Source of the DNA: Actinomycetota bacterium
GTDB taxonomy: Bacteria; Actinomycetota; Geothermincolia; Geothermincolales; RBG-13-55-18
NCBI GenBank assembly: GCA_040757835.1
Contig: JBFLWJ010000002.1
Location: forward strand, 127,498-191,497
Length of the DNA stretch: 64,000 bases
Reading direction: 5' to 3'
The first letter of the stretch is position 1. The number at the start of each line of letters is the position of its first letter. A program made the position numbers and the translations under genes. Below, piece by piece: positions 10,668-61,945 of the stretch. The notes below the pieces were generated by a model that did not search any database, was not told the DNA's origin, and saw nothing but the letters and a program-made list of their open reading frames with translations.

Positions 10668-10674
10668 TATATAT

Positions 10675-11019: not shown

Positions 11020-11177
11020 TCAGGAATAATTGAGTGGTCTCTCCTCTTTTTCCTTCTCAGACCTGCCTACAAAAGAATTACAGCAACTTAAGTAACGGTA
11101 AGGGCTGTGCTCCGCACTATGCCAGATACGGTTTACTTCGCAGTGGCACGGTCCAGGGGTAGACCCCGATAGGGACG

Positions 11178-12065: not shown

Positions 12066-12066
12066 A

Positions 12067-12624
12067 TCAGACCTCCATCAGTTCCTTCTCCTTGACCTTG
12101 AGCATGTCGTCGGTCTCGGAGATGAAGCGGTCGGTGAGCTTCTGTACCTCCTCCTGGCCGCGGTGGAGGTCGTCCTTGGTTATCTCGTGCTCCTTCTCGA
12201 AGGCCCGTAGGTCCTCGATGACGTCCCGGCGTACGTTGCGGATGGCTACTCTGCCCTCCTCCGCCTTGGCGCGCACCGACTTGGTCATCTCCTTGCGGCG
12301 CTCCTCGGTGAGCTTGGGGATGGGCAAGCGGATGACGTTGCCGTCGCTGACCGGGTTAACGCCCAGGTCCGCCTGGTGGATGGCCTTCTCCACGTCCTCG
12401 ATGACGCTCTTGTCGTAGGGAGAGACCACCAGCAGGGTCGGCTCCGGGACCGCGATGGAAGCGATCTGGTTGAGCGGCGTCGGAGCCCCGTAGTAGTTCA
12501 CCGACACGCGGTTCAGGAGCGAGGCGCTGGCCCTCCCGGTGCGGACCGAGGCGAAGTCGTCGCGCACGTGCTCCACCGCCTTCTTCATGCGCCTTTCCGC
12601 ATCCTGGAGTAGGTCGTCTAGCAC
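12067..12624 (-). CDS. frr: ribosome recycling factor
   Basis: 185 aa, full-length RRF similarity. Confidence 0.9.
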   Translation of the reverse strand: MLDDLLQDAERRMKKAVEHVRDDFASVRTGRASASLLNRVSVNYYGAPTPLNQIASIAVPEPTLLVVSPYDKSVIEDVEKAIHQADLGVNPVSDGNVIRLPIPKLTEERRKEMTKSVRAKAEEGRVAIRNVRRDVIEDLRAFEKEHEITKDDLHRGQEEVQKLTDRFISETDDMLKVKEKELMEV

Positions 12625-12627
12625 CGC

Positions 12628-13377
12628 TTATCCCCCTTCCCTCAAGTCCGACGCCACTATGGTTCCGATCCTCTCCCCGCAAAGCGCCCGGGTGATGTTC
12701 CCGGGAACGGTCATGTTGAAGACGATGATGGGGAGGCAGTTGTCCATGCACAGGGAGACCGCGGTGGCGTCCATCACCCGCAGCCCCTGCTGCAGGACCT
12801 CGATGTAGTCAAGTGATGTATACATGACCGCCTCCGGGTTGAGCAGGGGGTCGGAATCGAAGACGCCGTCCACCCTCGTCGCCTTGAGGATGGCCTCGGC
12901 GCCGATCTCCAGGGCGCGCAGGGCGGCGGTAGTGTCGGTCGTGAAATAGGGGTTCCCGGTGCCCGCCGCGAAGATCACGATGCGCCCCTTCTCCAGATGG
13001 CGGATGGCGCGGCGCCTGATGTACGGCTCTGCGATGGACTGCATCTCGATGGCCGACTGCACCCGCGTGAACACGCCCTTCTTCTCCAGGGCGTCCTGGA
13101 GGGCCAGGGCGTTCATCACCGTGGCCAGCATCCCCACGTAGTCCGCCGCCGCGCGGTCCATGCCCCGGGCGCTCGCGGCCATGCCACGGAAGATATTGCC
13201 TCCCCCCACCACGATGGCCGTCTGCACTCCGAGGTCGTTGACGGCGACGAGTTCGTCTGCTATGACGTTCACCGTCCCGGGGTCGATACCGAAATCGCGT
13301 CCGCCCATGAAAGCCTCGCCGCTGAGCTTTATCAGGGCCCGTTTGAAACGGGGCCGGGCTTCCCGGTGGTCCGCCAT
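12628..13377 (-). CDS. pyrH: UMP kinase
   Basis: '[10 protein letters not shown]…' amino-acid kinase fold. TAA stop codon. Start trimmed to the internal Met (track ORF to 13407). Confidence 0.9.
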
Positions 13378-13501
13378 TCCTATTCCCCCTTTCAGCCCCT
13401 CGAACACGCCGCTGTCTCGCCTTAGAATTCTATTCCCCGCCCGCCGTCACCTTCCAGACCGCGCACTTACACGGTCCGTATGGCCGGCACGCCGACGTGT
13501 T

Positions 13502-14107
13502 CTACTCTCCGGTGGACTCTCCCACCTGGAAGCGCGCGAAACGTTTCACCACCACGTTCTCTCCCACCGCGGCTATGGTACGCTTAACGAGTTCCCCGAT
13601 GGTGATATCGGGATCCTTGACGAAGGGCTGGTCTAGGAGGCAGACCTCCTCGTAGTACTTCTTCATGCGCCCCTCGACTATCTTGTCGACCACATTCTCC
13701 GGCTTGCCCTCCTTGAGGGCGCGGCTGCGGTTGATCTCCCTCTCCTCCGCCAGCACCTCCTCGGGCACTTCATCGGCGGACACGTAGAGCGGCTTGGAGG
13801 CCGCGATATGCATGGCGATATCGTGCACCATGGCCCGGAAGTCCTCGTTACGGGCGACGAAATCGGTCTCGCAGTTCACCTCCAGCAGCACCCCGATGCG
13901 GTTGTTGAGGTGGATATAGGCGTCGATTATGCCGTCGGCCGCTATGCGCCCGGCCTTCTTCTGCGCGCCCGCGAGACCCTTCTCGCGCAGGATGCGCACG
14001 GCCTTTTCCGAGTCGCCGCCGGACTCCTGCAGTGCCTGCTTGCAGTCCATTATACCGGCTCCGGTGGTCTCCCTCAGTTCTTTGACCTGTGCCGCGTTGA
14101 TCTCCAT
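13502..14107 (-). CDS. tsf: elongation factor Ts
   Basis: N-terminal UBA-like '[19 protein letters not shown]' EF-Ts signature. Confidence 0.9.
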
Positions 14108-14149
14108 CTCTCCTCCTTGATAAAAGCTATGGGGAAAGAGTCGTGGGGA

Positions 14150-14983
14150 TCAGTCCCCCACCGGCTCCTCTATCTCTTCCTTGTCCTTGGGCTTCTCTGC
14201 CTTCTCCGCCTTCTCGGCCTTCTCTCTCTCTTTCTCGGCCGCCGCCGCTGCCTTTGCCGCCGCTTCTTCCTCCTTTAGGCGGCGAGCCTGCAGGGCGTCC
14301 CGGATCTGGAACCCTTCCAGGACCGCGTTGGCGATGATCTTGCTGATGAGGTTGGCGGCCCGGATGGCGTCGTCGTTCCCGGGGATGACGAAGTCCACCA
14401 GGTCCGGGTCGCAGTTGGTGTCGACCACGGCGATCACCGGTATCTCTAGCTTGCGGGCCTCCATGAGCGCGATGTTCTCCTTGCGGGGGTCGATGATGAA
14501 GACGGCGCTGGGGAGCCTGTCCATGTTGCGCAGCCCCTCGAGGTTGCGGCGCAGCTTGATCAGGCGGTGGCGCACCCGGCTCTCCTGTTTCTTGGGCATG
14601 TTCTCCAGCTCGCCCGACGCCTCCATCTCCTCCAGCTCCTTGAGCTTCTCGATGCGCTTGCTGATGGTCGCCCAGTTGGTGAGGGTGCCGCCGAGCCAGC
14701 GGTTGGTGACGTAGGGCATGCCGCAGCGCATGGCGTTCTCCTTGATGGCCTCCTGGGACTGCTTCTTCGTCCCCACGAAGAGCAGCGAGCCGCCATTTCC
14801 CACCGTCTCGCGGATGAAGTTGTAGGATACCTCGATGAGTGCCAGGGTCTGCTGCAGGTCGATGATGTAGATGCCGTTGCGCTCGGTGAAGATGTACTTC
14901 TCCATCTTGGGGTTCCATCTCCGGGTCTGGTGTCCGAAGTGGACCCCCGCTTCGAGCAGGTGCTTCATGGATACGACGGTCAT
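14150..14983 (-). CDS. rpsB: 30S ribosomal protein S2
   Basis: '[20 protein letters not shown]' S2 signature. C-terminal EKAEKAEK low-complexity tail. Confidence 0.9.
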
Positions 14984-15315
14984 GTCTCCTCCTTGGTTTT
15001 TCCTCCGCCCGCCTCATCCCCCCTCCCTACCCCCGTGGGGGCACCCGGGGAGAGGGTCCGCGGGCGTGTGTAATACTGGCAACAGCGCCAGTTGAATATA
15101 GTAGCACGTGAGCTTTTACGCGGGCAACCGGCTTCTCGCGCGGCGCGGTTCTCCCCGGCAGGTTGCAGGTGTGCTTAAGCTGCTTGTTGGCACGGGCCGG
15201 GATTGCCCCAAGGACCTGGGAGGGGTGATGTCTGCTGAGCCGATCTTCTGCAGGTCATCTGACCTACATTCCCCACCCTAAATCACGCTCAGAATAGCAT
15301 TTTCCCTTTCAGGAA

Positions 15316-15621
15316 TCAGCCCTTCTTCGACCCGCCGCTGCGCCGCAGCTTCGCCAGTTCGATCTCGAGAGCGACCCACCTCGAGGTGAGCTCCTTGAAT
15401 TTCTGATAGGTCTTGAGCTCACGCTTCACCCGGGCCACGTCAGCCGGCTTTATGTAGTTCGTATGACCTCTCCCTGAATGGCTGTAGCTGAGCTGCCAGT
15501 ATTCCTCTCCACGAGACCGCTTCTGCCTGGACAGGGAACCGGGGTGCATGCGCCCTAGCCCTGACAGGCTCTCCTTAATCCGCGTTATCTCGGCCTCGAT
15601 GTGTGCTTGACTCCTGCTCAT
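15316..15621 (-). CDS. small basic coiled-coil protein of unknown function, possibly mobile-element associated
   Basis: About 100 aa from the second Met (MSRSQAH…). Lower GC than the backbone. Located beside a transposase fragment. Upstream contains two TTGACA -35-like hexamers and an 8-bp inverted repeat GTTGTATC/GATACAAC. Confidence 0.3.
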   Translation of the reverse strand: MSRSQAHIEAEITRIKESLSGLGRMHPGSLSRQKRSRGEEYWQLSYSHSGRGHTNYIKPADVARVKRELKTYQKFKELTSRWVALEIELAKLRRSGGSKKG

Positions 15622-15623
15622 AG

Positions 15624-15845
15624 TTGTATCATTGTCAAGATACAACGGGTTGTCAACATTGTCATGCGAGGGAAGGGAGAGGTCTCTTGGACGACGAGGT
15701 ACGCGAGCTTCTCGCGAGCATCAGCGCGAGCCAGGCGGGGCACCTGCCGGTGGTGGCGGCCTTCCTCCGGAGGATAGGGCTTGCCAGGGCCGTGAACTCG
15801 GCGGTGCCCTCACAGTGTCAAGGGCAACGTAATTTGTCCTCTTAA
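15624..15845 (+). pseudogene. transposase N-terminal remnant (IS1634/IS4-like)
   Basis: 'LDDEVRELLASISASQAGHLPVVAAFLRRIGLARAVN' resembles the N-terminal 'G-L-P-V-V-A…LGL' block of IS1634-family transposases. Stops after about 60 aa. No catalytic domain downstream. Confidence 0.3.
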
Positions 15846-17156
15846 TGGCGAAATAATTTGTCCACTTTTTGGCGAAAACATCCGGCTGGCCAGCATTTCG
15901 TATGGTCCCTGCATGCCCAGGGTCAGTAGATCAAGCGTTACGTCCAGGCTCCCACTGCCGGGGATGTTCTCCACCTCGAGCACCTCTGTTGGCGTGTTGG
16001 GGTCCGCGACTGGATATATCGCGATGCTGCATGGGCCGGAGTCGGATATGCCTTTGTTGCTCACATGGAAGGTCACGGTGAGCGTGGAGCCCTCCGGGGG
16101 CTCGCCGTCCGAGAGTTCCACCCCGTCAATGCGGGGGCGGGGGCGGGCGGCTGTGAGCAGCAGGGCCGTCGCGGCCAGGTCTCCTGCGATGGAGCCGTCC
16201 TCGAGCTGGCGGCTGTATAGCCACGAGAGGGCAGCCGCCGTATCTGCAACCTCCTCCGAACACCATGTGAGAGTCTCCAGGGCAAGGGCCGTCTCATAGG
16301 GGGTAGAGTCCTGCTCTCCGAAGCCTCCATCCTCGTTCTGGTAGGTGGCTAGCTTGAGGGCCGCTTCGCCGCGCGCCGCCTCCAAGACATCGTCTATATC
16401 CATATCGCTGGCCGGAACCACCTGGTTTCGTAAGGATAGAGCCCTTAGGGCAAGGGCAGTGGCTGGAAGATCCGCGATACCTTACCGCCCCGATGAGAAT
16501 CCGCCGTCCTCGAGCTGGGAGGAAATGAGATACGTTATGGCTGCTTCCGCCTTATCCATCTCCTGCAGGGAGAGGAGGGCCGGATATGAGATAGCTGTGT
16601 CCAGGGGATTGCCTCTCTCACCGGGAGCCAGTGAGAGGCTTCCGTCTTCATGTCCACAAGCGGCGAGGAAGTCCCGTTCAACCTGGCTGGGGGTGGCCGG
16701 GTCACCCGCGAGTGCAATGCAGCAAGCTTTACGCGAGATGAAGTCCGAGTTCGCCGCCGTGCTGGAAGTGAGCCAGGCAAGGGCGCTGTTTAAAGCGTCC
16801 GCATCGCCTCCCTGCCACAACAGCCCTTCTGCGCACAGCGCCGTATCCCCCATAGCGAGGCGGCTCCCCCATGAACCGTCTTCGTTCTGCTGTGATTCCA
16901 CGAACTGCCTCGCCCTATCGATCATTGCGGGTACGTCGTCTCCGGAGGCGTTCGCGGCGGAACCGCCGTTGGCTATGAAGATGGAGAATGTGATAAAGGA
17001 GGATAGAAATATCAGTAACATGATAGTCTTCGCGGGTGACGCCTTCGAAACTACGCCCTTTGCCTTGAGCCCCATATGCCCTCCTTGGTACCCTGTAGCA
17101 GCCTCATACCCTGATTCAAAGAACGCCTCGAGGGTTATATCCCCAGATAAGAGCAA
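15810..17156 (-). pseudogene. secreted/surface protein with prenyltransferase/squalene-cyclase-like (alpha-alpha toroid) repeats and C-terminal CARDB-like domain, interrupted by in-frame TAA
   Basis: ORFs 16482..17156 and 15810..16421 are in the same frame. The intervening 60 nt are open; only a TAA at 16482-16484 separates them. N-terminal signal/TM segment, repeats 'QNEDGSWG'/'QNEDGGFG' (QxxDGxWG type), CARDB-like 'TLTVTFHVSNKG' beta domain. Confidence 0.5.
15830..15878. repeat. tandem direct repeat, 2 x ~24 bp (TAATTTGTCC-N6-TGGCGAAA)
   Basis: TAATTTGTCCTCTTAATGGCGAAA / TAATTTGTCCACTTTTTGGCGAAAA, read directly. Located at the junction of the transposase remnant and the 3' end of the surface-protein gene. 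Confidence 0.6.
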
Positions 17157-47724: not shown

Positions 47725-49038
47725 TCAATCGCAGGCCGCGAGGTCCTCGCGCCCCAGGTACTCCGAGATGAAGCGCATGGCGCAGAAATCGCCGCACATG
47801 GTGCAGGCCTCCTCCCCCTCCACCTGCCGCTCGCCGAAGAGGCGCCGCGCCTTCACCGGGTCAAGGGCCAGCCGCAGCTGTTCCTCCCACCGCAGCCCTT
47901 TCCTGGCCATGCTCATGTACAGGTCCCACTCCCTCGCGCCCGGTACGCCACGAGCTATATCCGCGGCATGGGCGGCGATACGCGTGACGACGACCCCCTC
48001 GCGCACGTCCTCCGCGGTGGGCAGCCCCAGGTGCTCGCGCGGGGTCACGTAACAGAGGAAGTCCGCGCCGGCCATGGCGGCGACGGCCCCCCCGATGGCG
48101 GCCGCGATATGGTCGTAACCGGCGGCCACGTCAGTGACCAACGGCCCCAGCACGTAGAAAGGGGCGCCGCGGGTTATGCTCTTGGCCATGCGGATGTTCG
48201 CCTCCACCTGGTGCAGGGGGATATGCCCCGGTCCTTCCACCATGCACTGCACGCCGGCATCGCGGCAGCGCTTTACCAGCTCGCCCAGGACCACCAGCTC
48301 CGCCACCTGGGCGGCGTCGGTGGCGTCCTCGATGCAGCCCGGTCTCAGGCCGTCACCCAGGGACAGGGTGACCTCGTACCTGCGGGCGATCTCCAGCAGG
48401 CGCTCGAAATCGGAGTAGAGCGGGTTCTCCTCGCCGTGGTGCAGGATCCACCCCGCCAGGAAGGCGCCGCCGCGGCTGACGATGTCGGCGATGCGCGGGT
48501 TGGCCCTGAGGGCCTCGAGTACCCTCGCGGTCACCCCGCAGTGCACGGTGATGAAGTCCACGCCGGAGGCGCAGTGGTCCTCGATGGCGCGGAACATGTC
48601 GTCCGGGGTCATCCTGACTACGCTCCCTTTTTCGTCCAGGGCACGCACCGCCGCCTGGTAGATGGGGACGGAGCCCACGGGTATGGGGGAGTTCGCGACG
48701 ACGGCGTCCCTGACCTTGTCTATGGGGCCGCCCGTGGAGAGGTCCATCACCGCGTCGGCGCCGGCTTCCACCGCGGCCCGCAGCTTCACCAGCTCGTCCT
48801 CGATGCCGGTGTAGTCGCTGGAGGTGCCGATGTTGGCGTTGACCTTGGTACGCGAGCCTCCCCCGACTATGCAGGGACGCCCCATCTCGCGGGTGGCGTT
48901 GCAGGGGACCACCGCGGTTCCCTCCAGCATCGCCTCCACCAAAGCGCCGCGGTCCAGTCCCTCGGCGGCTGCCAGCTCGTCCAGGAAGGGCGGCACGTTC
49001 CCCCGCCGTAATTCCTCCAGTAAAGTGTTCCTGCTCAT
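47725..49038 (-). CDS. thiC: phosphomethylpyrimidine synthase
   Basis: 437 aa with C-terminal 'CTMCGDFCAMR' radical-SAM-type ThiC motif. Confidence 0.95.
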   Translation of the reverse strand: MSRNTLLEELRRGNVPPFLDELAAAEGLDRGALVEAMLEGTAVVPCNATREMGRPCIVGGGSRTKVNANIGTSSDYTGIEDELVKLRAAVEAGADAVMDLSTGGPIDKVRDAVVANSPIPVGSVPIYQAAVRALDEKGSVVRMTPDDMFRAIEDHCASGVDFITVHCGVTARVLEALRANPRIADIVSRGGAFLAGWILHHGEENPLYSDFERLLEIARRYEVTLSLGDGLRPGCIEDATDAAQVAELVVLGELVKRCRDAGVQCMVEGPGHIPLHQVEANIRMAKSITRGAPFYVLGPLVTDVAAGYDHIAAAIGGAVAAMAGADFLCYVTPREHLGLPTAEDVREGVVVTRIAAHAADIARGVPGAREWDLYMSMARKGLRWEEQLRLALDPVKARRLFGERQVEGEEACTMCGDFCAMRFISEYLGREDLAACD

Positions 49039-49041: not shown

Positions 49042-49719
49042 TTACCTCCCTCGCAAGCAGCCGTCGACCAGCCGGCGCAATGCCCGGACCGCCCCAGCCA
49101 TGTCCGCGGTCCCGGTAACCGCGGAGATCACCGCGATGCCGTCCGCGCCCGCATCGAAGACCTGCCTCGCATTTGCCTCGCTGACGCCGCCGATGGCCAC
49201 TATGGGCAGCGCGACCGCGCCACGTATCTCCTCCAGTCCCTCCAGTCCCATGGGTAAGACCGCGTCCGGTTTGCTCGGTGTGGCGAACACCGGGCCCACC
49301 CCCAGGTAGTCGGCGCCGCCCGCTTCGGCTCGTTTCGCCTCCTCCACCGTGGTGGCTGAAATGCCTACGATCATATCCTCGCCGACCAGGGAGCGCGCCG
49401 CTTCCAGCTCCAGGTCCTCCTGGCCCAGGTGCACCCCGTCAGCCCCTGACGCCATGGCCACGTCCACGCGGTCGTTTACGAAGAAGATGCAGTCCCCCCG
49501 CTGCCTGGCCATAGCGCAGATGCGGGAAGCCAGTTCGTGCATCTCTCTCCCGCCGAGTTCCTTGGCACGCAACTGGATGGCGTCCGCGCCGCCCTCCAGG
49601 GCCGCCGCGGCCACGTCCAGGTGGCCACCGCCCGCCGACGTATCCGCGTAGGTGATGACGTATAGCCCGAGTCTGTGCCTCAGCATATTTTGCTCCGCAT
49701 CTCCTATCGCAACGTACAC
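49042..49719 (-). CDS. thiE: thiamine-phosphate synthase
   Basis: TIM-barrel ThiE motifs ('LYVIT', 'VQLRAKE', 'GADGVHLGQED', 'IGGV'). Confidence 0.85.
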   Translation of the reverse strand: MYVAIGDAEQNMLRHRLGLYVITYADTSAGGGHLDVAAAALEGGADAIQLRAKELGGREMHELASRICAMARQRGDCIFFVNDRVDVAMASGADGVHLGQEDLELEAARSLVGEDMIVGISATTVEEAKRAEAGGADYLGVGPVFATPSKPDAVLPMGLEGLEEIRGAVALPIVAIGGVSEANARQVFDAGADGIAVISAVTGTADMAGAVRALRRLVDGCLRGR

Positions 49720-49813: not shown

Positions 49814-49945
49814 CGTTAGAAAAGCCGCTGCCTGAACGGGTAAGCGGCTCATCATCACCATCGTGACCCACGTTTCCTCCGCTGGCATTACCCAGATCAG
49901 GTTCAGGAGTATGCTCTCAGCTCCCGCCGGGGAGCACCCCCACAT
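49814..49945 (-). promoter_or_regulatory. TPP (THI-box) riboswitch with terminator-type expression platform, upstream of thiE-thiC-thiL-thiD
   Basis: Minus-strand sequence 'GGGGUGCUCCCCGGCGGGAGCUGAGAGCAUACUCCUGAACCUGAUCUGGGUAAUGCCAGCGGAGGAAAC' matches the THI element core (CUGAGA; GAACCUGAUCUGGGUAAUGCCAGCG). A hairpin AGCCGCU…AGCGGCUUUUCU follows before thiE. Confidence 0.8.
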
Positions 49946-50115
49946 GGCGTTTATACGGTTTTCAATCCATTTCTATAATAGCTCAGGTCGTGGCCGTCAC
50001 CAAGGGCAACGGGCATCTGCCGCTTTGAAGGACCCCCGTCCCTGGTCCATAATAGCATCAGGTGGCGGAGGCCTCCCGGGCGGCCGCCAGCCGCGCTACG
50101 CATATGGGGGTTCAT

Positions 50116-52651: not shown

Positions 52652-52728
52652 TGGCGCCCTTGGGGAGATTCGAACTCCCGCACGTGGCTCCGGAGGCCAC
52701 TGCTCTATCCACTGAGCTACAAGGGCAC
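52652..52728 (-). tRNA. tRNA-Arg (anticodon CCG), CCA encoded
   Basis: Hand-folded: GUGCCCUUGUAGCUCAGUGGAUAGAGCAGUGGCCUCCGGAGCCACGUGCGGGAGUUCGAAUCUCCCCAAGGGCGCCA. Acceptor, D, anticodon (loop CUCCGGA) and T-arm (GUUCGAAUC) all canonical. Confidence 0.85.
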
Positions 52729-52825: not shown

Positions 52826-53833
52826 TCAGGCGGGCAGGTAGACCCACAGTTCTCCCTCGTCGGCCCGCCTTACCGCTCCTTGCTCTTCGAGGATGAGCAG
52901 GTGTCCCAGTGCCTCCTTCAGGGCCAGGAAATGATCGACGCCGGGCGGGCCCTTCCTCACCTGCGGAAAGAGCTGCAGGGCCACTTCCCACACCGTGCGG
53001 CAACCCCTGCCCACCGCGTCACGGGTCTTCTCCAGGCGCTGCTCGTGGTGGAGGAGGTTTATCTCTATCCTTTTCCTCACCTTGCGGATGGACCTGCCGT
53101 GGCCGGGATACGCGGCGTGGATGTCGTAGGACTCCAGCAGCCGTAGTGAAACGAGGAACTGCGGCAGTCCGGTGATGTATCCCCGCCAGGGCGGGCAGTA
53201 GAGTTCCGGGTTGGGGGTGATGGTGCGCATGAGGTGGTCACCCGAGAAGAGCAGTTTCTCCCCGCGCAGGAAATAACATAGGTGCCCTGCGGTGTGTCCG
53301 GGGGTATGGATAACCTCCAGTTCACGGTCCCCCGCTTTCACCGTTTCTCCGCCGCCCAGCCGCACTTCGACGCGGCACGGCTCCGAGAGCTTGTTCCATA
53401 CCGACGCAAGATCGAACACCAGTTGGGCCATATCGGAGGGGAACCCCATGGAGGAGGACATGGACGAATAACAGCCGTATTCCTTTCGCAGGCGGTCTCC
53501 GGCTCCCTCGATGCGCGGCCGCTCGTAGCGGTGGGCCGCCACCCGGGCCCCGGTCGCGGCGCTCAGCCGCGCCGCCAGCCCGCAGTGGTCGATATGGGAA
53601 TGGGTGAGGTAGATATAGGCCATCTCATCTATGCCCGCGTAGCGCAGCGCCGCGGTCACGAGTTCCTGGAGAAGCGGGTGGTAGGGCCCGGCGTCTATGA
53701 GCGCGGGATACTCGCCCTTGAAGAGGTACAGGCTGATGTTCTTCAGCTCGTGCTCTATGGGTATATCGATGTGCAGGATGTCCTCGCGAATGGGCTTGAC
53801 CATTCCCGACAGGTCTATCCCCGCTGGTATCAT
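52826..53833 (-). CDS. MBL-fold metallo-hydrolase
   Basis: 'THSHIDHCG' HxHxDH motif and downstream His/Asp ligands, 335 aa. Confidence 0.75.
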   Translation of the reverse strand: MIPAGIDLSGMVKPIREDILHIDIPIEHELKNISLYLFKGEYPALIDAGPYHPLLQELVTAALRYAGIDEMAYIYLTHSHIDHCGLAARLSAATGARVAAHRYERPRIEGAGDRLRKEYGCYSSMSSSMGFPSDMAQLVFDLASVWNKLSEPCRVEVRLGGGETVKAGDRELEVIHTPGHTAGHLCYFLRGEKLLFSGDHLMRTITPNPELYCPPWRGYITGLPQFLVSLRLLESYDIHAAYPGHGRSIRKVRKRIEINLLHHEQRLEKTRDAVGRGCRTVWEVALQLFPQVRKGPPGVDHFLALKEALGHLLILEEQGAVRRADEGELWVYLPA

Positions 53834-54330
53834 CCCACCAGCGCCGTTTCCAGGTAGGGTTCCCAGGTGGGATGGATGTCCGTAGCCAGGCTGAAGATCC
53901 AGATGTGGTCATGGGGCGGGACCGGCTTGTGCGAGAGCTTGAGCCCGGCCTCGGAGGGCAGCCGGTTCATCTTGCGGGTGTTGCAGCGGCGGCAGGCGGC
54001 GACGACGTTGTCCCATGCGTGCTGCCCGCCCCGGCTGCGCGGTATGACGTGGTCGATACTCTCCGCCTTATCCCCGCAGTACTGGCAGGTGTGCCTGTCC
54101 CTCAGAAAAACGGCGCGGCGGCTGAGGGAGACGCCGCGATAGGGAACGCTGACGTAATACGCGAGCCGGATCACGGTGGGAAAAGGCATGATCAGGCGCT
54201 CGGAGTGGAGGTATTCGCCACGCTCCTCGATGATCTCCGCCTTGTTCTTGAGCACGAGGACCACGGCTCGCTTGACGTTTACCAGGTTCAGTGGCTCATA
54301 GGAAGCGTTGAGGACCAATACCCTGCGCAT
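53830..54330 (-). CDS. HNH endonuclease
   Basis: 'CQYCGDKAESIDHVIPRSRGGQHAWDNVVAACRRCNTRK' HNH/zinc-finger motif. SD AAGGAG before 'MRRVLVL'. Confidence 0.75.
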   Translation of the reverse strand: MRRVLVLNASYEPLNLVNVKRAVVLVLKNKAEIIEERGEYLHSERLIMPFPTVIRLAYYVSVPYRGVSLSRRAVFLRDRHTCQYCGDKAESIDHVIPRSRGGQHAWDNVVAACRRCNTRKMNRLPSEAGLKLSHKPVPPHDHIWIFSLATDIHPTWEPYLETALVG

Positions 54331-54471
54331 CGTCTCCTTATTACCCGGCGGCACACCGCTTCAAGATGATAGATACCTGTCGCCGCGCGCCCTCGGCCTC
54401 CTTTTCTATTACCTTGACACGGACACTTCGCCCTTATGATAAACCATCTGCATCTCACGGGTCGACCCCGC

Positions 54472-55089
54472 TCAGACCACGGCCAGCAGACGGTCCACCG
54501 CGATCTCCGCCAGCACCGAGAGGTCTTCCGTAGGCAGGTAGCCGGGTGCCGAGATATCGAAGAGGACCCGGGCCGAGGCCCCGAACTCCTCGTCCGCCTC
54601 GTTGAAGATGATGAGCAGGGGCACGCGGGGCAGCACCTCCCAGGCGACGGCCACGTCTCCCGGGAGGTCGAGGTGGCGCGCGTTGTGCCGCGCCCAGTCG
54701 CGCAGGGAATCCAGGCGTCCCGCGAGACCGCGCGACAGCGGTCCCTCCACCTCGGCCACGAAAGCGGGCTCGTGGTAACGGGCCCCGGGGAGGTCGCGGT
54801 AGGAGACCCACTGCTCCGCCGTAGGGGTGCCGTCCGCACCCACAAGATAGTGGAGGATGATGATCTCCGCCATGCCGCTGGCGGGGACGCCGTCCGCCAG
54901 CGTGACCTCCCCGTCCGGATAAGACACGCGGTGATCCTCGCCGAAAAACGGCACGGTGAACCAGCCACCGGCGTACGAATACAACGTGCCAGAACGTGAC
55001 GATACCCAGGACGGGTCCAGTGCTGCCAGCTCGCGGCGCGCTTTCTCCCTGGCCTCCCGCAACTGGTCCGGTCCGTATTCCTGTGTCAT
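54472..55089 (-). CDS. hypothetical protein (DUF3786-like by recollection)
   Basis: About 205 aa from 'MTQEYGPDQL…'. ATGA overlap with the upstream MBL gene. No motifs I can name with certainty. Confidence 0.3.
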   Translation of the reverse strand: MTQEYGPDQLREAREKARRELAALDPSWVSSRSGTLYSYAGGWFTVPFFGEDHRVSYPDGEVTLADGVPASGMAEIIILHYLVGADGTPTAEQWVSYRDLPGARYHEPAFVAEVEGPLSRGLAGRLDSLRDWARHNARHLDLPGDVAVAWEVLPRVPLLIIFNEADEEFGASARVLFDISAPGYLPTEDLSVLAEIAVDRLLAVV

Positions 55090-55979
55090 CTCTCCCTCCC
55101 TAGGCAGCGCGATATGCCGTGTACGTTGAGCAGGCTCACGCCTCCGAACATGAAAATACCATAGGGGGAACTCACGTCCATGATGCGCATTAGCCGCCCG
55201 GCGGTCCGCTTGGGATCGCCGTCCGGACCCATGGCGCTCACCGCCTCCACCATCAGCTCCAGGTTGTGCGATGACAGCCGGGCCAGTTCGGTGCTGGCGC
55301 CACCGCAGCCGAAATGGGTGAAGCATGTGCGGCCGCAGCCAAGGGCCGCAAGGCGCTCCAGGGTGTGGCGCTGTTGTTCCAGGTCGAAATCGGGGGGCGG
55401 CGTCACCGGGATCACCTTTCCCTCGGGGGCGAGGTAGAGGCCGAGGGAGTCGCCGCTGAACAGGGTCCCGGAGGTCTCGTCGACCACGCAGATGTGGGAG
55501 GAGGCGTGGCCGGGAGCCGGGACCATACGCAATGTCCTGTTTCCCAGGGAGACGCTCTCCATGTCCTCGGCGCCCACGAGCCTCTCCCTGGCGATGGGCT
55601 CCATGTCGCCGTACATGTCGGCGATCCTGCCCAGGGAGCGGCGCGCGCTCGCCACCAGCCGCGCCGGGTCGGCCAGGATATCCAGGCCTTTGCGCGCAAC
55701 CACCACGCTGGCGTTGGGAAGCTCGCGCATCAGGTGACCGGCGCCGCCGGCATGATCGAGATGGATATGGGTGACGATGATATACTGTACCTCTTCCCGG
55801 AGTATGCCCGCCTCGTCGAGGCCTTCAAGGACCGTCCCGTAACTGACCGATATCCCGGCGTCCACCAGCGCCGCGCCTGCGTCTCCCCGCAGCGCATAGA
55901 CGGCGGTGAACCCGGGCACATCCGCCATGGCCGTGTCTATCAGCCAGATGCCTTCCGCGACCGCCCGCACTTCGGTCAT
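55086..55979 (-). CDS. MBL-fold metallo-hydrolase
   Basis: 'THIHLDHAGG' HxHxDH motif, 297 aa. Confidence 0.75.
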   Translation of the reverse strand: MTEVRAVAEGIWLIDTAMADVPGFTAVYALRGDAGAALVDAGISVSYGTVLEGLDEAGILREEVQYIIVTHIHLDHAGGAGHLMRELPNASVVVARKGLDILADPARLVASARRSLGRIADMYGDMEPIARERLVGAEDMESVSLGNRTLRMVPAPGHASSHICVVDETSGTLFSGDSLGLYLAPEGKVIPVTPPPDFDLEQQRHTLERLAALGCGRTCFTHFGCGGASTELARLSSHNLELMVEAVSAMGPDGDPKRTAGRLMRIMDVSSPYGIFMFGGVSLLNVHGISRCLGRER

Positions 55980-56007
55980 CTTTCCCCCCTGCGAACCGTG
56001 GGCTCGA

Positions 56008-56748
56008 TCATCTTATGCCCCAGGCGCGGTGGGCCTGGGGGACAACACGCACGTCCGCGAAGAACTGTCTCGTGATGAGGTACAGCTCCCAAGCCTGGCG
56101 CGGGTTCATCCCCGTTTCGCCCGGCCGGGGCGATACCGGCTGCAGAACCAGTGTTCTTCCGGGTGCCGCGCTGCCCACTGCGCGGCAGGCCTCTTCGACC
56201 TCGGCGCCACAGCTCTCCCTTGTGATGACCATCTTTAAGAAGAGCTCCGCCCCCGCCGCCTGCCGCAGGAAAGCACGGTGGCGGCCGCTGAGGTCTTCTC
56301 CCCCCTGGGAGGATGGGAGCTTGATATCCATGGCGATCCAGTCCGTCCAGGGCATTACCGCCGCAAGCTCCTCCGCCAGGGTCCCGTTGGTCTCAAGATA
56401 TACGCGCATCCCCGCCCGTTTGAGAAGGGGGAGCAACTCCTCCAGCGCCGCCGCCTGCAGCAGCGGCTCGCCGCCGGTTACGCTGACGGAATGCATGGCG
56501 GGGTGCCAGAAGGAAGCGATCCGGTCGAACGCGCCGGCGGTTTCCAGGGGGTTCCGGACCTCATCGGGCTGTCCGTCCCACGGGAACAGCATGCACTTCT
56601 CCGCCCGCTCCCACGCCGCCGGGGTGTCGCAGTAGCTGCAGCGCAGGTTGCAGCCCGACAGCCTGACGAAGACCTGGGGGACGCCGACCAGGACCCCTTC
56701 GCCTTGAAAGGAGAGGAAGATCTCGTGGATAAACAGTTCCCGGCTCAT
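56008..56748 (-). CDS. queE: 7-carboxy-7-deazaguanine synthase (radical SAM)
   Basis: 'VFVRLSGCNLRCSYCDT' CX3CX2C-type cluster motif and QueE length (246 aa). Confidence 0.85.
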   Translation of the reverse strand: MSRELFIHEIFLSFQGEGVLVGVPQVFVRLSGCNLRCSYCDTPAAWERAEKCMLFPWDGQPDEVRNPLETAGAFDRIASFWHPAMHSVSVTGGEPLLQAAALEELLPLLKRAGMRVYLETNGTLAEELAAVMPWTDWIAMDIKLPSSQGGEDLSGRHRAFLRQAAGAELFLKMVITRESCGAEVEEACRAVGSAAPGRTLVLQPVSPRPGETGMNPRQAWELYLITRQFFADVRVVPQAHRAWGIR

Positions 56749-56777
56749 CTGCGGGCCCGGTCCATCTTCGGGCCTTA

Positions 56778-57365
56778 TCAGGAAACGCCTCTGACCTTGC
56801 AGCGCGCCTCCTCGATGCCCTTGACCTCTCCGATGAATCCCTGCAGCACCTTGAGGATGAAGTCGTCCACCGGCACGTCCAGGTCTTCGAGGCCCAGGGT
56901 GGGCACCGGGGTGTTGTCGCTGGAGACGTTGATGCCCAGGTGGATGAGGGTGGATACCGGGCTCACGGTGGCCACGGAGACGGTGAGCTTGCGGTTCTCC
57001 TCCTCTCCCTCTTCCACCTCCACCTCGATGTAGAGGTCATCGCCCTTCCTGACGATGAACAGTTCCGGCTTCAGCTCCTCGATGACGTCCTTGACCACGC
57101 AGAGGAACAGTCTCTGCATGACCACGGCGCGGTCCAGGTCAGTATCGAACATCTCGATCAGGAAATGAGCCATCTCCTCGCTGCCGATCTCGGCGCGGTT
57201 CTTGCGGTCTTCCATGTCCACTAGGTCCTCGACCCCCACCCTACACGGACCGCGGAAGGCCAGGATGGAGTCCCCCTGCACGTCGTACTCGGAATAAGCA
57301 TACAGAGACCGCAGCTGGCTGCCGTCGTAGGTGATCTTCTTGCCCTTGATGTACTTGCCTTTCAT
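56778..57365 (-). CDS. uncharacterised acidic protein embedded in the que operon (DUF366-like by recollection)
   Basis: 195 aa with no catalytic motif recognised. Not QueF (lacks the E(S/L)K(S/A)hK motif and Cys context). Tightly packed between queE and queC. Confidence 0.3.
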   Translation of the reverse strand: MKGKYIKGKKITYDGSQLRSLYAYSEYDVQGDSILAFRGPCRVGVEDLVDMEDRKNRAEIGSEEMAHFLIEMFDTDLDRAVVMQRLFLCVVKDVIEELKPELFIVRKGDDLYIEVEVEEGEEENRKLTVSVATVSPVSTLIHLGINVSSDNTPVPTLGLEDLDVPVDDFILKVLQGFIGEVKGIEEARCKVRGVS

Positions 57366-57400
57366 GGCCCCTCCATATCTCTACCCTCCGACAACCCTGT

Positions 57401-58102
57401 TCATGGCATGCGCGAAAAAAGCCTTTCGAGCCTCCCCGTGACCCGCAGGAGCGAAGCTGCCGCGAGGAGGCGGACACAGGATTCACACGAACCGCACATC
57501 TTTTCTTCCCCATTATAGCATGACCAAACATAGCGAAAGTCCAGCTCACGCCGTATTGCCTCGCGCATGATTGCCAGTTTATCCCATCCAACGGTGAAGC
57601 TGCGCACCCTGACCCGGGACAGCGTGGAGTAGCCCAGGGCGCGGTTGGTCTCTCGCACGAACGCCGCGGTGTTATCGGGAAAGGCGGCCCCCTCCTCGGC
57701 ATTGAGGCCCATGATCACCCACCTAAGTCCCCTGGACTCGGCTACACAGGCCCCCATGTTGACCAGCAGGCCGTTGCGGTTGGGCACCCAGACCGCTTTC
57801 ATATTCTCATGAGCCTGGACCGGGTCGGCGAGCTGTTCCGGCTCCACCCCGGGCAGGTCGGCCTGCGGGCTGGTCAAGGCGCCTCCCCCCACCTCCGCCA
57901 GCCAGGTCGCGTCCAGGACCAGGTTGTCGACGCCATACGTTTCGCACAGGGCGCGCGACCTCTCCACCTCGCGGCGCGCCGCACGCTGCCCGTAATCCAC
58001 CGTCACCGCCACATCCACCCCACCGTGTTCCATCGCCATGAGCAGGTTTACGGCGGAGTCCAGTCCAGCGGAGAGGAGGACCAGGTTGCGCCCCCCGCTC
58101 AC
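57401..58102 (-). CDS. queC: 7-cyano-7-deazaguanine synthase
   Basis: PP-loop 'VLLSAGLDS' and C-terminal zinc motif 'CGSCESCVRL'. GTG start overlapping the queD stop (GTGA). Confidence 0.85.
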   Translation of the reverse strand: MSGGRNLVLLSAGLDSAVNLLMAMEHGGVDVAVTVDYGQRAARREVERSRALCETYGVDNLVLDATWLAEVGGGALTSPQADLPGVEPEQLADPVQAHENMKAVWVPNRNGLLVNMGACVAESRGLRWVIMGLNAEEGAAFPDNTAAFVRETNRALGYSTLSRVRVRSFTVGWDKLAIMREAIRRELDFRYVWSCYNGEEKMCGSCESCVRLLAAASLLRVTGRLERLFSRMP

Positions 58103-58488
58103 GCTTCCTCCCGGTAGACCACTTCGGTGTCGGGGGATTCGGACACGCTCACCCACGCCAGGCGCACTCCCGCCGGAAGAGCCGCGAGCCGCTCCCGCAG
58201 CGAAAGATAGATGAAACGCGCGATGTTCTCGGAGGTGGGTGAGGTATACGTAAAGGGCTCGACCTCGTTGAGGCAGCGGTGGTCGAAGGGGGCGATGATC
58301 TCCTCCAGGAGCCGCTTCAGGTCGTGGAAGTCTACCAGCAGATGCGAGGGGCCCAGCCGGGATCCTGCCAGTGCCGCCCGCACCCTGAAGTTGTGGCCGT
58401 GCATGCGGGCGCATGGACCGTCGTAGTCCCTGAGCATATGCGCCGCATCGAAGTGGGTACCGGCGCTGATCTCGAAGGTCCCGGCCAT
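58099..58488 (-). CDS. queD: 6-carboxy-5,6,7,8-tetrahydropterin synthase
   Basis: 'CARMHGHNFRV' PTPS/QueD Cys-His-His zinc motif. About 130 aa from the internal Met. Confidence 0.85.
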   Translation of the reverse strand: MAGTFEISAGTHFDAAHMLRDYDGPCARMHGHNFRVRAALAGSRLGPSHLLVDFHDLKRLLEEIIAPFDHRCLNEVEPFTYTSPTSENIARFIYLSLRERLAALPAGVRLAWVSVSESPDTEVVYREEA

Positions 58489-58608
58489 CTCCGCCCCCGT
58501 CCTTTCAAGCACGACCGGTGACATCAACATCAATAGTAAGTATATACGTTTCGCCCGCATGGAGCATCGGCGGTATGGTGAACGCCGGCGCCGCGGCGCA
58601 GAGCCCGT

Positions 58609-59607
58609 TCACTCTTCAAGCATGGAGACGAAGCTCTCGAGACGCGTCGCGGTCCTTGCGTCTATGGCATCGCAGCGGTCCAACTCCAGGGTGAGCACGG
58701 GGACGTCCAGGCGCCTGCGGATGATGATGTCCTCTACCTGGCGGAAACAGAAGCTCTGCACGTAGTGGATCACCCCGTCAAGGTGCCGTCGCTCCACCTC
58801 GCGTTCGATGTCCTCCAGGCGGTAGAAGACGGAGTAGGGATAACTGTAGAGCCGGTACTTCTCCACCAGGTCCGGGGCGCAGGATGGCAGGCTGAACTGG
58901 CGCTGCGTCTCGTTGAATATCACCCGCGCGCCCAGGGCTTCCAGGTGGTCATAGAGCTCCGGCGCTATGGGCGGCACCCCCAGGTATCCCAGTCGCACCA
59001 TATCCGCGGCGCGGCGCCAGGATACGTCCCGCGCCCGTTCCCTCGCCGTCACCAGGAACTCTTCCAGCTTCGCCCCGAAGGCGTCGGGATCACCCTCCAT
59101 GTCACTGCAGCTCACCAGGTAGAGGTGGTTCTCGAAACCGCTCACCAGGCCTTCCTCCCAGGTCAGGCGGTCTATCTCGTGGGCCTTGCAGCGGACTGCA
59201 TCCAACTTCTCCATGGCCGCCCGAACCGCCGTCTCGTCCGTCTCCAGGCGTTGAATGAAAACGTCCATCTGTGCCCGCAACAGCCCGTGGTCGCGCTCGT
59301 AGGGATAGGCGAAGGGTATCACCTCCAGCCCCTCGGACTGCAGCGTCTCCATGAGGGCGTGGGTATTGGAGCAATCCCCCTGGGTCACGGCGACCACGGC
59401 CGCCATGTCCTGCGTCTTCTTCACCACGCCATAGATGCCCTTGGTCCATGCGCAGAAAGAGCGTGGGAACCCGACGGTCTCGGCGTCCTCTATCAGCCCC
59501 TCACGGTCGCCATGGGAGACGAAGGCGTTGTTGAGGTCCACCGGCACATGTCCCGCCGCGTAGATGACCTCTATGGGTACGGTAGTGGTTATTCCTATCT
59601 TTGCCAT
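58609..59607 (-). CDS. 2-hydroxyacyl-CoA dehydratase (HGD-D) family protein
   Basis: 'MAKIGITTTVPIEVIYAAGHVPVDLNN' N-terminus and conserved Cys pattern typical of the HgdB/BcrB-like family. No activase gene in the window. The long N-terminal extension in the track is probably non-coding. Confidence 0.55.
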   Translation of the reverse strand: MAKIGITTTVPIEVIYAAGHVPVDLNNAFVSHGDREGLIEDAETVGFPRSFCAWTKGIYGVVKKTQDMAAVVAVTQGDCSNTHALMETLQSEGLEVIPFAYPYERDHGLLRAQMDVFIQRLETDETAVRAAMEKLDAVRCKAHEIDRLTWEEGLVSGFENHLYLVSCSDMEGDPDAFGAKLEEFLVTARERARDVSWRRAADMVRLGYLGVPPIAPELYDHLEALGARVIFNETQRQFSLPSCAPDLVEKYRLYSYPYSVFYRLEDIEREVERRHLDGVIHYVQSFCFRQVEDIIIRRRLDVPVLTLELDRCDAIDARTATRLESFVSMLEE

Positions 59608-59884: not shown

Positions 59885-61054
59885 CTACCCCCAGGGGTAG
59901 GTGTCGGTGACACCCATGAGGTTGGCGCCGATGACCAGGCGCTGGATCTGGGCCGTGCCCTCGTAGATCTGCATGATCTTCGCGTCGCGCATCAGCTTCT
60001 CCACCAGGTATTCCTTCATGTAGCCGTAGCCGCCGTGCACCTGCACCGCGTTCACGGTCACTTCCATGCACATGTCGCCGCAGAAGGCCTTGGCGTAGGA
60101 TGACTCGAGCGAGCACGGCAGGCCTTTGTAAGCCTTCCAGGCCGCTAGCTGGTAGAGGCGCCTTCCCGCCTCGACCTTCATGGCCATCTCGGCCAGCATG
60201 AAGTTGATGGACTGCTGGGCGATGATGGGACGCCCGAACTGGACCCTCTCCTTCGAGTACTTGAGGGCTTCCTCGAAGGCGGCGCGCGCCACGCCGGTGG
60301 CCAGGGCGGCCACGCTGGCACGGGTCAGGTCCAGGGTGGTCATGACGTTGTAGAAACCCTGCCCCATGGGCACGAAGAGGTTCTCCTTAGGCACCTTGAC
60401 GTTGTCGAAGATGACCTCGGAGGTGTCCGAGGCCCGGATGCCCATCTTGTCCTCGTGCTTGCCCACGGAGACGCCGTCGTATGAGCGCTCCACTATCACC
60501 GCGCCGATACCACCGTACTTCTTCTCCTTGTCGAAGGTGCAGAAGACGGAATAGAAGTCGGCGATGCCGCCGTTGGTTATGAAGCACTTCTGCCCGTTGA
60601 GCAGGTAATGGTCACCCTCCTCCTTGATGACGGTGGAGAGGGCCGCCGCGTCCGATCCCGCTCCCGGCTCGGTGAGGCAGAAAGCCGCGAACTTGGGGTC
60701 ATCGGGGTCGCAGAGGCGCGGGAAGTATTCCTTCTTCTGCTCCTCGTTTGCGGCGATGACCATGGGCGTCGTGGCCAGACTGTTAGCACCCAGGGTGGTG
60801 GCGATACCGGCGCATCCCCAGGCGAGCTCCTCGCTGACCATAGAGGCCGTGATCTGGTCCAGCCCGCCTCCGCCGTACTCCTCCGGGATGGCCATGGCCG
60901 TAAGGCCGGCCGCAGCGGCCTTCTTCACCAGGCTGTCGGGAACTTTGCCTTCCTTGTCGCAATCCAGGGCGACGGGCCGCATCTCGTTGAGCGCGAAATC
61001 GTGCGCCATCTTGACGGCTGCTTTTTGCTCCTCGGTGAGTTCGAAATCTACCAT
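59885..61054 (-). CDS. acyl-CoA dehydrogenase
   Basis: 389 aa with ACAD N, middle and C domains and C-terminal catalytic 'YEGTAQIQRLVI' motif. Confidence 0.9.
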   Translation of the reverse strand: MVDFELTEEQKAAVKMAHDFALNEMRPVALDCDKEGKVPDSLVKKAAAAGLTAMAIPEEYGGGGLDQITASMVSEELAWGCAGIATTLGANSLATTPMVIAANEEQKKEYFPRLCDPDDPKFAAFCLTEPGAGSDAAALSTVIKEEGDHYLLNGQKCFITNGGIADFYSVFCTFDKEKKYGGIGAVIVERSYDGVSVGKHEDKMGIRASDTSEVIFDNVKVPKENLFVPMGQGFYNVMTTLDLTRASVAALATGVARAAFEEALKYSKERVQFGRPIIAQQSINFMLAEMAMKVEAGRRLYQLAAWKAYKGLPCSLESSYAKAFCGDMCMEVTVNAVQVHGGYGYMKEYLVEKLMRDAKIMQIYEGTAQIQRLVIGANLMGVTDTYPWG

Positions 61055-61153: not shown

Positions 61154-61945
61154 TTACTTCCCTACGAACTTGGCCTTGCCCGGGCCCTCCTCCAGGAAAG
61201 TGCGCATACCTATTTTCTGGTCCTCGGAGGCGAAGCAGAGGGTGATGCCGTGCCCCTCGATGATCAGCCCCTCCTCGATGGAGCATTCCATTCCCTTGTT
61301 GATGGCCTTCTTGGCCATGGCCAAGGCCACCGCCGGACCGTTGGCGTACTTTGAGGCCACTTTCTGGGCTTCGGCGATGACCGAATCCTCTCCCGTTACC
61401 ACCTTCTGCACCAGCCCCATCTCCAGGCACTCCTGGGCGCTGTAGATGCGGCCGCTGTAGATCATCTCCTTGGCCTTGGCGGGTCCGATGAGCCGCGGCA
61501 GCCTCTGGGTCCCCCCGGCGCCGGGGATGATGCCCAGGAGTATCTCGGGCTGGCCGATCTTCGCGTTTTCGTGGGCGAAGCGCCAGTCCGCGCAGATGAT
61601 CATCTCGCAACCGCCCCCCAGGGCGAACCCGTTGACGGCCGCGATGACCGGTTTGGGGATGTTCTCGACCTTGGTGAAGCTCTCCTGCAGTCTGCCCACG
61701 TACTTGCCCACGACCACCGGGTTCATCTCCACCATCATCTTGATGTCCGCCCCAGCCGCGAAATGTTTCTCTCCGCCCGTGATCACCACGGCCCTCACGC
61801 CGTCGTCCATGGCCAGCTCATCGGCGCACTGACCTATCTCCAGGGCCACCTCGGCATCGATGGGGTTTACGGGAGGGTTGTTGAGGGTCATCGTGGCCAC
61901 CCCGTCCACGACATCTACCTTTACCAGCTTATAGTCGTACGCCAT
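61154..61945 (-). CDS. enoyl-CoA hydratase/isomerase (crotonase family)
   Basis: Oxyanion-hole 'AAVNGFALGGGCE' motif, 263 aa. Confidence 0.9.
   Translation of the reverse strand: MAYDYKLVKVDVVDGVATMTLNNPPVNPIDAEVALEIGQCADELAMDDGVRAVVITGGEKHFAAGADIKMMVEMNPVVVGKYVGRLQESFTKVENIPKPVIAAVNGFALGGGCEMIICADWRFAHENAKIGQPEILLGIIPGAGGTQRLPRLIGPAKAKEMIYSGRIYSAQECLEMGLVQKVVTGEDSVIAEAQKVASKYANGPAVALAMAKKAINKGMECSIEEGLIIEGHGITLCFASEDQKIGMRTFLEEGPGKAKFVGK

Follow-up and report, generated by a model that had tools for sequence, protein, structure and literature searches.

Within a 64,000-nucleotide stretch of contig JBFLWJ010000002.1 (positions 127,498 to 191,497 of the forward strand; hereafter the window), an uncultured Actinomycetota bacterium of the Geothermincolia that has Candidatus Solincola among its relatives (assembly GCA_040757835.1) carries three genes for the synthesis of 7-cyano-7-deazaguanine (preQ0), queD, queC and queE, and, between the last two, a gene for a 195-residue protein of family DUF366. 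Queuosine, archaeosine and the 7-deazaguanine modifications of DNA all begin with preQ0, and the route to it is regarded as a solved one of four enzymes (FolE, QueD, QueE and QueC). On one side the cluster is flanked by a gene for an HGD-D family Fe-S protein, and on the other by genes for two hydrolases of the metallo-beta-lactamase (MBL) fold, here MBLa and MBLb, a DUF3786 protein and an HNH endonuclease-domain protein (Table 1). All of these genes had been named in an earlier note on this DNA, and all are present on the minus strand where it located them. The note saw in the locus either a new accessory enzyme or an unconventional use of preQ0; comparison across genomes supports the former, through linkage of DUF366 to preQ0 genes in many phyla, its fusion to QueC and its presence in phage clusters, and does not support the latter.

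The preQ0 operon of the window

QueD of the window exceeds the cut-off of its equivalog model (TIGR03367, 93.2 bits against 89.25), and QueC scores just below that of TIGR00364 (145.2 bits against 150.3). The motifs of QueC, namely the PP-loop LLS(A/G)GLDS (LLSAGLDS in the window), VWVPNRNG and the C-terminal WSCY..CG.CESC (WSCY..CGSCESC in the window), are kept in 64 orthologues. Judged by these models and motifs, QueD and QueC qualify as the corresponding enzymes of a preQ0 cluster. QueE is divergent: its top five NCBIfam matches are all QueE models, each with a score far under its cut-off (the best 88 bits against 300). The protein carries the motifs EIFLSFQGEG and CNLRCSYCDT, and is assigned as QueE on the basis of these motifs and its conserved position in the operon. 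QueD would convert the GTP-derived pterin dihydroneopterin triphosphate (H2NTP) to 6-carboxy-5,6,7,8-tetrahydropterin (CPH4), from which QueE would make 7-carboxy-7-deazaguanine (CDG), and QueC would convert CDG to preQ0. Two intermediates of the pathway are carboxylic acids: CPH4, made by QueD, and CDG, made by QueE and consumed by QueC, which takes the carboxylate through the amide to the nitrile, spending ATP.

The GTG start codon of queC overlaps the stop codon of queD by 4 nt (GTGA). An extended -10-like element (TGCTATAAT, TACAAT, TATACT) is conserved in the spacer between the HGD-D gene and queD in 20 related actinobacterial loci, which argues that queD starts a transcription unit of its own, and the HGD-D gene is probably a separate unit. 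The element lies only 7-10 nt on the 5' side of the queD ATG in several related loci, an arrangement that suggests leaderless queD mRNAs in these relatives. Neither a preQ1 riboswitch nor any other Rfam family was found in the queD leader of the window. The genes queD-queC-DUF366-queE are a self-contained operon that probably has its own promoter.

Linkage of DUF366 to preQ0 genes in bacteria

The best 80 loci out of 526 relatives of DUF366, taken from a scan in which a single genome stood for each GTDB species, were examined using BLAST and hidden Markov models (HMMs) built from the window proteins. The association of the 195-residue protein with QueC, QueD and QueE, noticed in the window by the earlier note, proved to hold across genomes: queE is immediately downstream of DUF366 in 77 of the 80 loci, and two of the three exceptions are at contig ends. 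Upstream of DUF366, QueC is encoded in 65 loci and QueD in 70, and the commonest order is queD-queC-DUF366-queE. Linked loci occur in at least seven phyla (Actinomycetota, Bacillota, Nitrospirota, Gemmatimonadota, Armatimonadota, Chloroflexota and Proteobacteria/Desulfobacterota). An order that continues into folE and surE (queD-queC-DUF366-queE-folE-surE) is found in 35 loci, mostly of Desulfotomaculia and other Bacillota; these folE-bearing loci encode the complete known pathway of four enzymes together with DUF366. The same core is present in single loci of Nitrospiraceae, Gemmatimonadota, Armatimonadota, Chloroflexia and Proteobacteria/Desulfobacteria, and on further metagenome contigs.

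QueC and DUF366 are also found as a single polypeptide of 438 residues (P0303), which is identical on three contigs from three independent metagenomes and is encoded between queD and queE (Table 1). Its occurrence in three different samples means that the fusion is not an accident of assembly. On one of these contigs (L084) the gene order is tgt-yajC-secD-secF-recJ-queD-[queC::DUF366]-queE; with tgt 5 kb upstream, this locus demonstrates that a bacterial tgt can coexist with a cluster of this type.

DUF366 in phage 7-deazaguanine clusters

Relatives of DUF366 were found on 18 contigs of IMG/VR. Four contigs, of 24, 40, 179 and 236 kb (L091, L092, L094 and L097, with L092 of 236 kb and L097 of 179 kb), hold a 7-deazaguanine cluster. 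On L092 the cluster spans 392-15500 and has the order DNA polymerase A (intein)-sliding clamp-QueD-phosphoribosyltransferase-QueE-x-x-QueC-DUF366-FolE-x-x-QueF-DpdA-like transglycosylase (phrog_887)-x-UvsX-x-DnaC-like loader, where x is an unannotated ORF (open reading frame) and QueF has 412 residues. Pfam and PHROGs annotation was made for L092; L091, L094 and L097 match its order of que genes by HMM. A locus of the L092 type is a typical phage cluster for 7-deazaguanine modification of DNA. The phage gene order is unlike the bacterial one, yet DUF366 still adjoins queC. Two further phage contigs encode DUF366 with other partners: FolE2 on L088, and QueE together with a weak DUF6610/DpdA4-like gene on L095. 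Since DUF366 occurs in bacterial and phage clusters alike, it belongs to the synthesis of preQ0 as such, whatever the later use of the product. A 2023 survey of deazaguanine genes in phages mentions neither DUF366 nor the phosphoribosyltransferase (PMC10516641).

The only match to DUF366 in the GenBank phage collection, 'Microcystis phage MaAM05' (L081, MW495066.1 108408-124932), was discarded because the region looks bacterial: secF, glyS, mtgA, engB, fabI and fliM surround the DUF366 homologue, and there are no que genes.

These distributions bear on the simplest alternative, that DUF366 is an unrelated gene placed among the que genes by chance. A Pyrococcus homologue that is not beside que genes could be cited for it, but adjacency to queE in 77 loci of several phyla, adjacency to queC in the different gene order of phages, and the fusion to QueC leave this alternative a negligible probability, and the neighbourhood statistics refute it.

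Predicted fold and conserved residues of DUF366

The DUF366 family is small: of 1.84 billion representative proteins, those that belong to it fall into 752 clusters at 50% identity. It is matched by no NCBIfam model, source databases list it simply as 'DUF366 family protein', and in the accessible literature it is undescribed, the sole mention being that PH0223 of Pyrococcus horikoshii interacts with itself in a two-hybrid screen (PMC1414084). The solved structure of PH0223 (PDB 2DDZ), which has six chains, is matched by DUF366 of the window with an E-value of 2e-32 and a TM-score of 0.88. An AlphaFold2 model of the window protein, made from a 20-sequence alignment, has a pLDDT (predicted local distance difference test) of 91.4 and a pTM (predicted template modelling score) of 0.88. 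After 2DDZ, the structures returned by Foldseek are all biotin/lipoate-protein ligases (probability 1.0, E 5e-7 to 1e-5, query-normalised TM-score 0.45-0.61). The protein that the earlier note had left uncharacterised is placed by HMM in DUF366 (PF04017) and by confident modelling in a predicted biotin/lipoate protein-ligase fold.

Across 151 representatives, whose identity to the window protein ranges from 30 to 86%, three residues never vary (K126, G39 and D50), and D110, H67, E71, H142, N146 and K190 are at least 95% conserved. At weak significance, D110 and K126 are placed on the Asp of the WPND type and the catalytic Lys of the ligases (K183 of BirA, K111 of the P. horikoshii biotin protein ligase PhBPL, K133 of LplA). 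The spacing D-x6-K, seen in the consensus of the family alignment (A1) and in typical members, P0092 among them, equals that between D104 and K111 of PhBPL, and these are the residues mutated in the ligase structures returned by Foldseek. In the window protein this spacing is broken by an eight-residue acidic insert, EVEVEEGE (E114-E121, window 57003-57026), located in a hairpin, with the conserved Asp before it and the invariant Lys after it. More than 90% of the family has a gap at this position, and the insert is confined to proteins of the Geothermincolia type. The acidity that the earlier note remarked on is real (isoelectric point 4.6), but it comes largely from this lineage-specific insert. 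PH0223 belongs to the same family as the window protein and differs from it in that the archaeal gene is not clustered with que genes and in that the window protein has the additional E114-E121 insert.

DUF366 and the ligases BirA, LplA and LipB (PF03099) are alike in predicted fold; in alignments of weak significance, the conserved Lys, Asp (D-x6-K) and G-x-N of DUF366 also fall in register with KWPND, K-x-x-G and GIGIN. They differ in that DUF366 has no significant match to PF03099 and is a single domain of 185-195 residues, to which neither a DNA-binding nor a C-terminal domain is attached. The genes near DUF366 encode no acceptor domain of the biotinyl or lipoyl kind, and its presumed substrate is a carboxylate of a deazapurine or pterin instead of biotin or lipoate. 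What is proposed for DUF366 is that it would work like the biotin/lipoate ligases, not that it belongs to their superfamily.

Possible roles of DUF366

The best explanation overall, held with moderate confidence, is that of a preQ0 operon with DUF366 as a ligase-like fifth component. That DUF366 is a dedicated component of the pathway, working with QueC and QueE, is likely; that it specifically adenylates CDG is proposed only tentatively. Enzymes with the biotin/lipoate-ligase fold use ATP to turn a carboxylic acid into an activated acyl-adenylate, which they then hand on to an amine. The predicted fold, the conserved residues, the fusion to QueC and the adjacency of the genes together suggest an ATP-dependent role in the activation of CDG. 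DUF366 would bind ATP and a carboxylic acid of the pathway, most likely CDG, would turn CDG into an acyl-adenylate or amide, and would cooperate with QueC, physically or sequentially, in the conversion of carboxylate to amide to nitrile. In its most specific form, which is possible but short of probable, this proposal makes DUF366 a fifth enzyme of preQ0 synthesis in many anaerobes, Thermococcales and some phages: a minimal ligase that adenylates or amidates CDG as a subunit or partner of QueC. There is a precedent in Gat-QueC of Crenarchaeota and phages, a glutamine amidotransferase fused to QueC, in which the reaction at C7 of the deazapurine is altered or aided by an auxiliary domain. The QueC::DUF366 fusion may be analogous, with a ligase fold as the partner rather than an amidotransferase.

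Several observations weigh against this proposal. QueC of Bacillus subtilis alone makes preQ0 from CDG in vitro, so that no helper is chemically required, and QueC of the DUF366-bearing clusters keeps the canonical motifs. DUF366 is found beside queD or queE without queC at several loci (e.g. L030, L065, L071, L072, L079 and L108). Thermococcales carry DUF366, but not beside que genes: PH0223 of P. horikoshii lies between a DUF2139 gene and the gene for a class I lysyl-tRNA synthetase (L082 4089-8169; L083 2042-6122). Some T4-like phages and one Planctomycetota contig have DUF366 alone. With que partners so varied, adjacency does not reveal which intermediate DUF366 touches. At the level of sequence, the best approach of the DUF366 profile to the ligases among PDB sequences is the Aquifex biotin protein ligase at an E-value of 0.4, and hhalign against a poor six-sequence ligase alignment, for which there were only five fragmentary database hits, gives a probability of 1.8% and a pairwise E of 0.028. 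Both of these weak alignments pair R-x-G-D-D-L-Y, K-L-S-V-S and I-H-x-G-x-N of DUF366 with KWPND, KK-SG and GIGIN of the ligases. Twenty members of DUF366 have no match to PF03099 or PF16917 even at E-values up to 10. Because support from sequence is weak, kinship with the ligases rests on the predicted fold and the register of the motifs. The other neighbours of DUF366 at loci that lack queC (genes for TPR, Fur, DUF2225, RecG, PspC and FGGY kinase proteins) were considered, and none is relevant.

The main rival to a catalytic DUF366 is a dedicated partner without catalysis, such as a scaffold, a chaperone or carrier for intermediates that are labile or toxic (CPH4, CDG or preQ0), or a sensor by which QueC or QueE is modulated, in which the ligase fold would be retained merely as a ligand-binding module. 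The linkage to que genes would be explained equally well by such a partner, the known chemistry of the four enzymes is complete without DUF366, different que genes accompany DUF366 in different genomes, and the self-association of PH0223 and the six chains of 2DDZ would fit such a partner as well. An invariant Lys and near-invariant Asp, His and Asn in the catalytic register of the ligases are, however, the pattern typical of an active enzyme, and the non-catalytic partner is considered rather unlikely.

It is far less probable that DUF366 is a non-orthologous replacement for the missing FolE or QueF. The genes folE and queF are indeed absent from the window, and DUF366 occupies the slot that queF has in the queCDEF operon of Bacillus. 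Replacement is contradicted by the 35 loci in which folE shares an operon with DUF366, by phage contigs in which FolE or FolE2 adjoins it, and by the phage cluster that encodes QueF and DUF366 together; this co-occurrence in the same operons and cluster largely excludes DUF366 as a substitute. In addition, FolE and QueF have a T-fold, which the ligase fold does not resemble, no site for a redox cofactor is present in the latter, and DUF366 is carried by archaea that do not make preQ1.

Genes absent from the window and the destination of preQ0

The absence of folE, queF and tgt from the window, which the earlier note had pointed out, was upheld: a tblastn search of the window with two Tgt queries and with FolE, FolE2, QueF, DpdA and DpdA4-like queries gave a best E-value of 0.008, for a spurious antisense match, and the FolE HMM had no match in the 64 kb. 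Nor were queA and queG/queH found in the window when translations were read and a partial Pfam scan was made; a Pfam scan of ten window ORFs that could not be named by eye returned nothing related to queuosine. Among the 80 related loci, Tgt is encoded within 10 kb in one, and QueF was detected in none when a single phage QueF was used as BLAST query and a QueF motif was looked for. For these reasons the lack of tgt, queF and folE nearby is unremarkable. FolE and the enzymes that consume preQ0 (Tgt, QueF and others) must be encoded elsewhere, as is usual. The locus is very probably an ordinary operon for the supply of preQ0, and the preQ0 is most likely destined for queuosine in tRNA.

The earlier note had raised the alternative that the genes for preQ0 synthesis, together with those for HGD-D, one or both MBL-fold hydrolases, DUF3786 and perhaps the HNH protein, form an unconventional 7-deazaguanine system that makes a tailored deazapurine metabolite or modifies DNA. 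On such a reading, DUF366 would be a ligase that couples CDG to another moiety. The window has no gene of the DpdA/TGT type, and PADLOC matched QueC as the sole component of a defence system. On its gene content the locus is not of the Dpd type: searches for the defining transglycosylase found none in the window. The HNH protein, listed by the earlier note in the flank of the cluster, matches generic HNH domains only, both in NCBIfam and in PADLOC.

The best argument for an unconventional system is the persistence of two neighbours in Actinomycetota, stronger than had been expected, where HGD-D is directly upstream of queD in 30 of the 80 loci and DUF3786 is downstream of queE in 25, including loci of a second, rearranged group. 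MBLa and DUF3786 also trail queE tightly: the gap between queE and MBLa is 28 nt, and the start of DUF3786 overlaps the stop of MBLa by 4 nt, which is why both may be co-transcribed behind the que operon. Against this, conservation of the neighbours is confined to one phylum, in which shared ancestry may account for it; the conserved promoter lies between HGD-D and queD; MBLa is missing from many close relatives; in Bacillota, other phyla and phages the cluster occurs without the flanking genes; and near HGD-D there is no second subunit and no evident activase. An unconventional system is improbable on this evidence, and there is equally little likelihood that the flanking genes are functionally coupled to deazapurine chemistry. 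The genes for HGD-D, the MBL-fold hydrolases, the HNH protein and the enzymes of acyl-CoA metabolism are treated as conserved neighbours specific to the lineage and not as machinery of preQ0 synthesis. The locus is neither a defence cluster nor a natural-product cluster, but a common variant of a known operon.

Flanking genes and other features of the window

The HGD-D protein is the sole PF06050-like ORF in the window and is remotely related to the double-cubane cluster protein (6ENO/7YYL, E 2e-7). No second HGD-D subunit was found in the window, and reading of the translations, without a model search for activase, gave no activase-like ORF; the description of this protein as an orphan by the earlier note is sustained to that extent. 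The order enoyl-CoA hydratase-acyl-CoA dehydrogenase-single-subunit HGD-D is kept in Geothermincolia (17-18 of the 80 loci). The nearest solved structures to MBLa are ST1585 (E 1e-19) and the thioesterase PqsE (E 1e-11), and the gene is present in only part of the actinobacterial loci. No relative of DUF3786 was found in the PDB, and its single-sequence model has a pLDDT of 40. The HNH gene starts 117 nt after DUF3786, and its distance from the cluster varies from 1.5 to 6.8 kb across loci. A weak promoter-like site (54465-54436) lies ahead of it; consensus scans for promoters and terminators gave results near background. The start of MBLb overlaps the stop of the HNH gene by 4 nt, and MBLb is found in close relatives only. 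Neither HNH nor MBLb is counted as belonging to the system.

In the second actinobacterial group (L030, L033, L041, L051, L054, L065 and L075, with labels such as Anoxymicrobiaceae and Acidimicrobiales), DUF366 is only about 48% identical to that of the window. The genes have the order MBLa-HGD-D-queD-DUF366-queE-DUF3786 (e.g. L065 7338-12531), with no queC within 9 kb. If these genomes lack queC altogether, DUF366 might take over part of the role of QueC.

Table 1. Positions of the preQ0 genes, their neighbours and related features (window coordinates, except for the fusion gene)
Feature	Positions	Strand	Model match
enoyl-CoA hydratase	61154-61945		
acyl-CoA dehydrogenase	59885-61054		
HGD-D family Fe-S protein	58609-59607	-	PF06050, E 3e-37
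HGD-D/queD spacer, 120 nt, probable promoter of the queD operon, AT-rich patch cgTATATACttacTATtg	58489-58608	-	
queD, 6-carboxy-5,6,7,8-tetrahydropterin synthase	58099-58488	-	PF01242, E 8e-35
queC, 7-cyano-7-deazaguanine synthase	57401-58102	-	PF06508, E 1e-42
DUF366, 195 residues	56778-57365	-	PF04017, E 2.7e-61, profile positions 6-184 of 184
queE, 7-carboxy-7-deazaguanine synthase (radical S-adenosylmethionine), divergent subtype	56008-56748	-	PF04055 + PF13353
MBLa, MBL-fold hydrolase	55086-55979	-	PF00753, E 5e-30
DUF3786 protein	54472-55089	-	PF12654, E 4e-42
HNH endonuclease-domain protein	53830-54354	-	PF01844, E 1e-14; PF14279
MBLb, second MBL-fold hydrolase	52826-53833	-	PF00753, E 4e-22
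tRNA-Arg(CCG)	52652-52726		Rfam
QueC::DUF366 fusion	L084 6524-7840; L085 1406-2722; L086 3465-4781		

The G+C content of the window is 60-68%, and its minus strand carries nearly all genes. From reading of the translations, housekeeping genes make up the remainder of the window (proS, ispG, dxr, frr, pyrH, tsf, rpsB, ffh, ftsY, smc, recG and thiC/D/E/L). The only Rfam match besides the tRNA is a thiamine pyrophosphate (TPP) riboswitch on the minus strand (49857-49951, 61.5 bits), directly upstream of putative thiE (49042-49719) and thiC (47725-49038), with thiD and thiL further downstream. The region 15316-17156 has a third-position G+C content of 0.64-0.72, against about 0.85 elsewhere, and may have been horizontally acquired; two ORFs within it (15810-16421 and 16482-17156) have no Pfam match, encode acidic proteins and were read as terpene-cyclase- or prenyltransferase-like repeats.

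Comparison with known systems and significance

The operon of the window resembles queCDEF (ykvJKLM) of B. subtilis in that QueD, QueE and QueC are encoded together for the making of preQ0 and that tgt is elsewhere, as in most bacteria. It differs in having no queF, in having DUF366 between queC and queE, and in its divergent QueE, which falls below every NCBIfam cut-off for QueE; a further difference is that the Bacillota relatives of the window cluster include folE inside the operon. With the Dpd and phage clusters, in which FolE, QueD, QueE and QueC are joined by DpdA, with or without QueF, DpdB/C or DpdL-N, the window has the preQ0 module in common, and some of the phage clusters also hold DUF366 beside queC. 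In contrast to them, the window has no DpdA/TGT-like transglycosylase, DpdB or DpdC, and the surroundings of its cluster are housekeeping genes.

DUF366 challenges the view of preQ0 synthesis as a pathway of four enzymes: its gene is almost always situated amid queD, queC and queE, in one lineage it is joined to QueC in a single protein, and DNA-modifying phages have it as well. What is new here is a conserved fifth gene of the preQ0 cluster, together with a specific hypothesis on its role. If the hypothesis is true, the DUF366 family, with all its 752 clusters, would gain an annotation, and the assisted chemistry of QueC in organisms that bear DUF366 could be explained. The biotin/lipoate-ligase fold would acquire a new class of substrate, which would widen its known chemistry, and phages would be seen to carry along one more step for the making of modified DNA.

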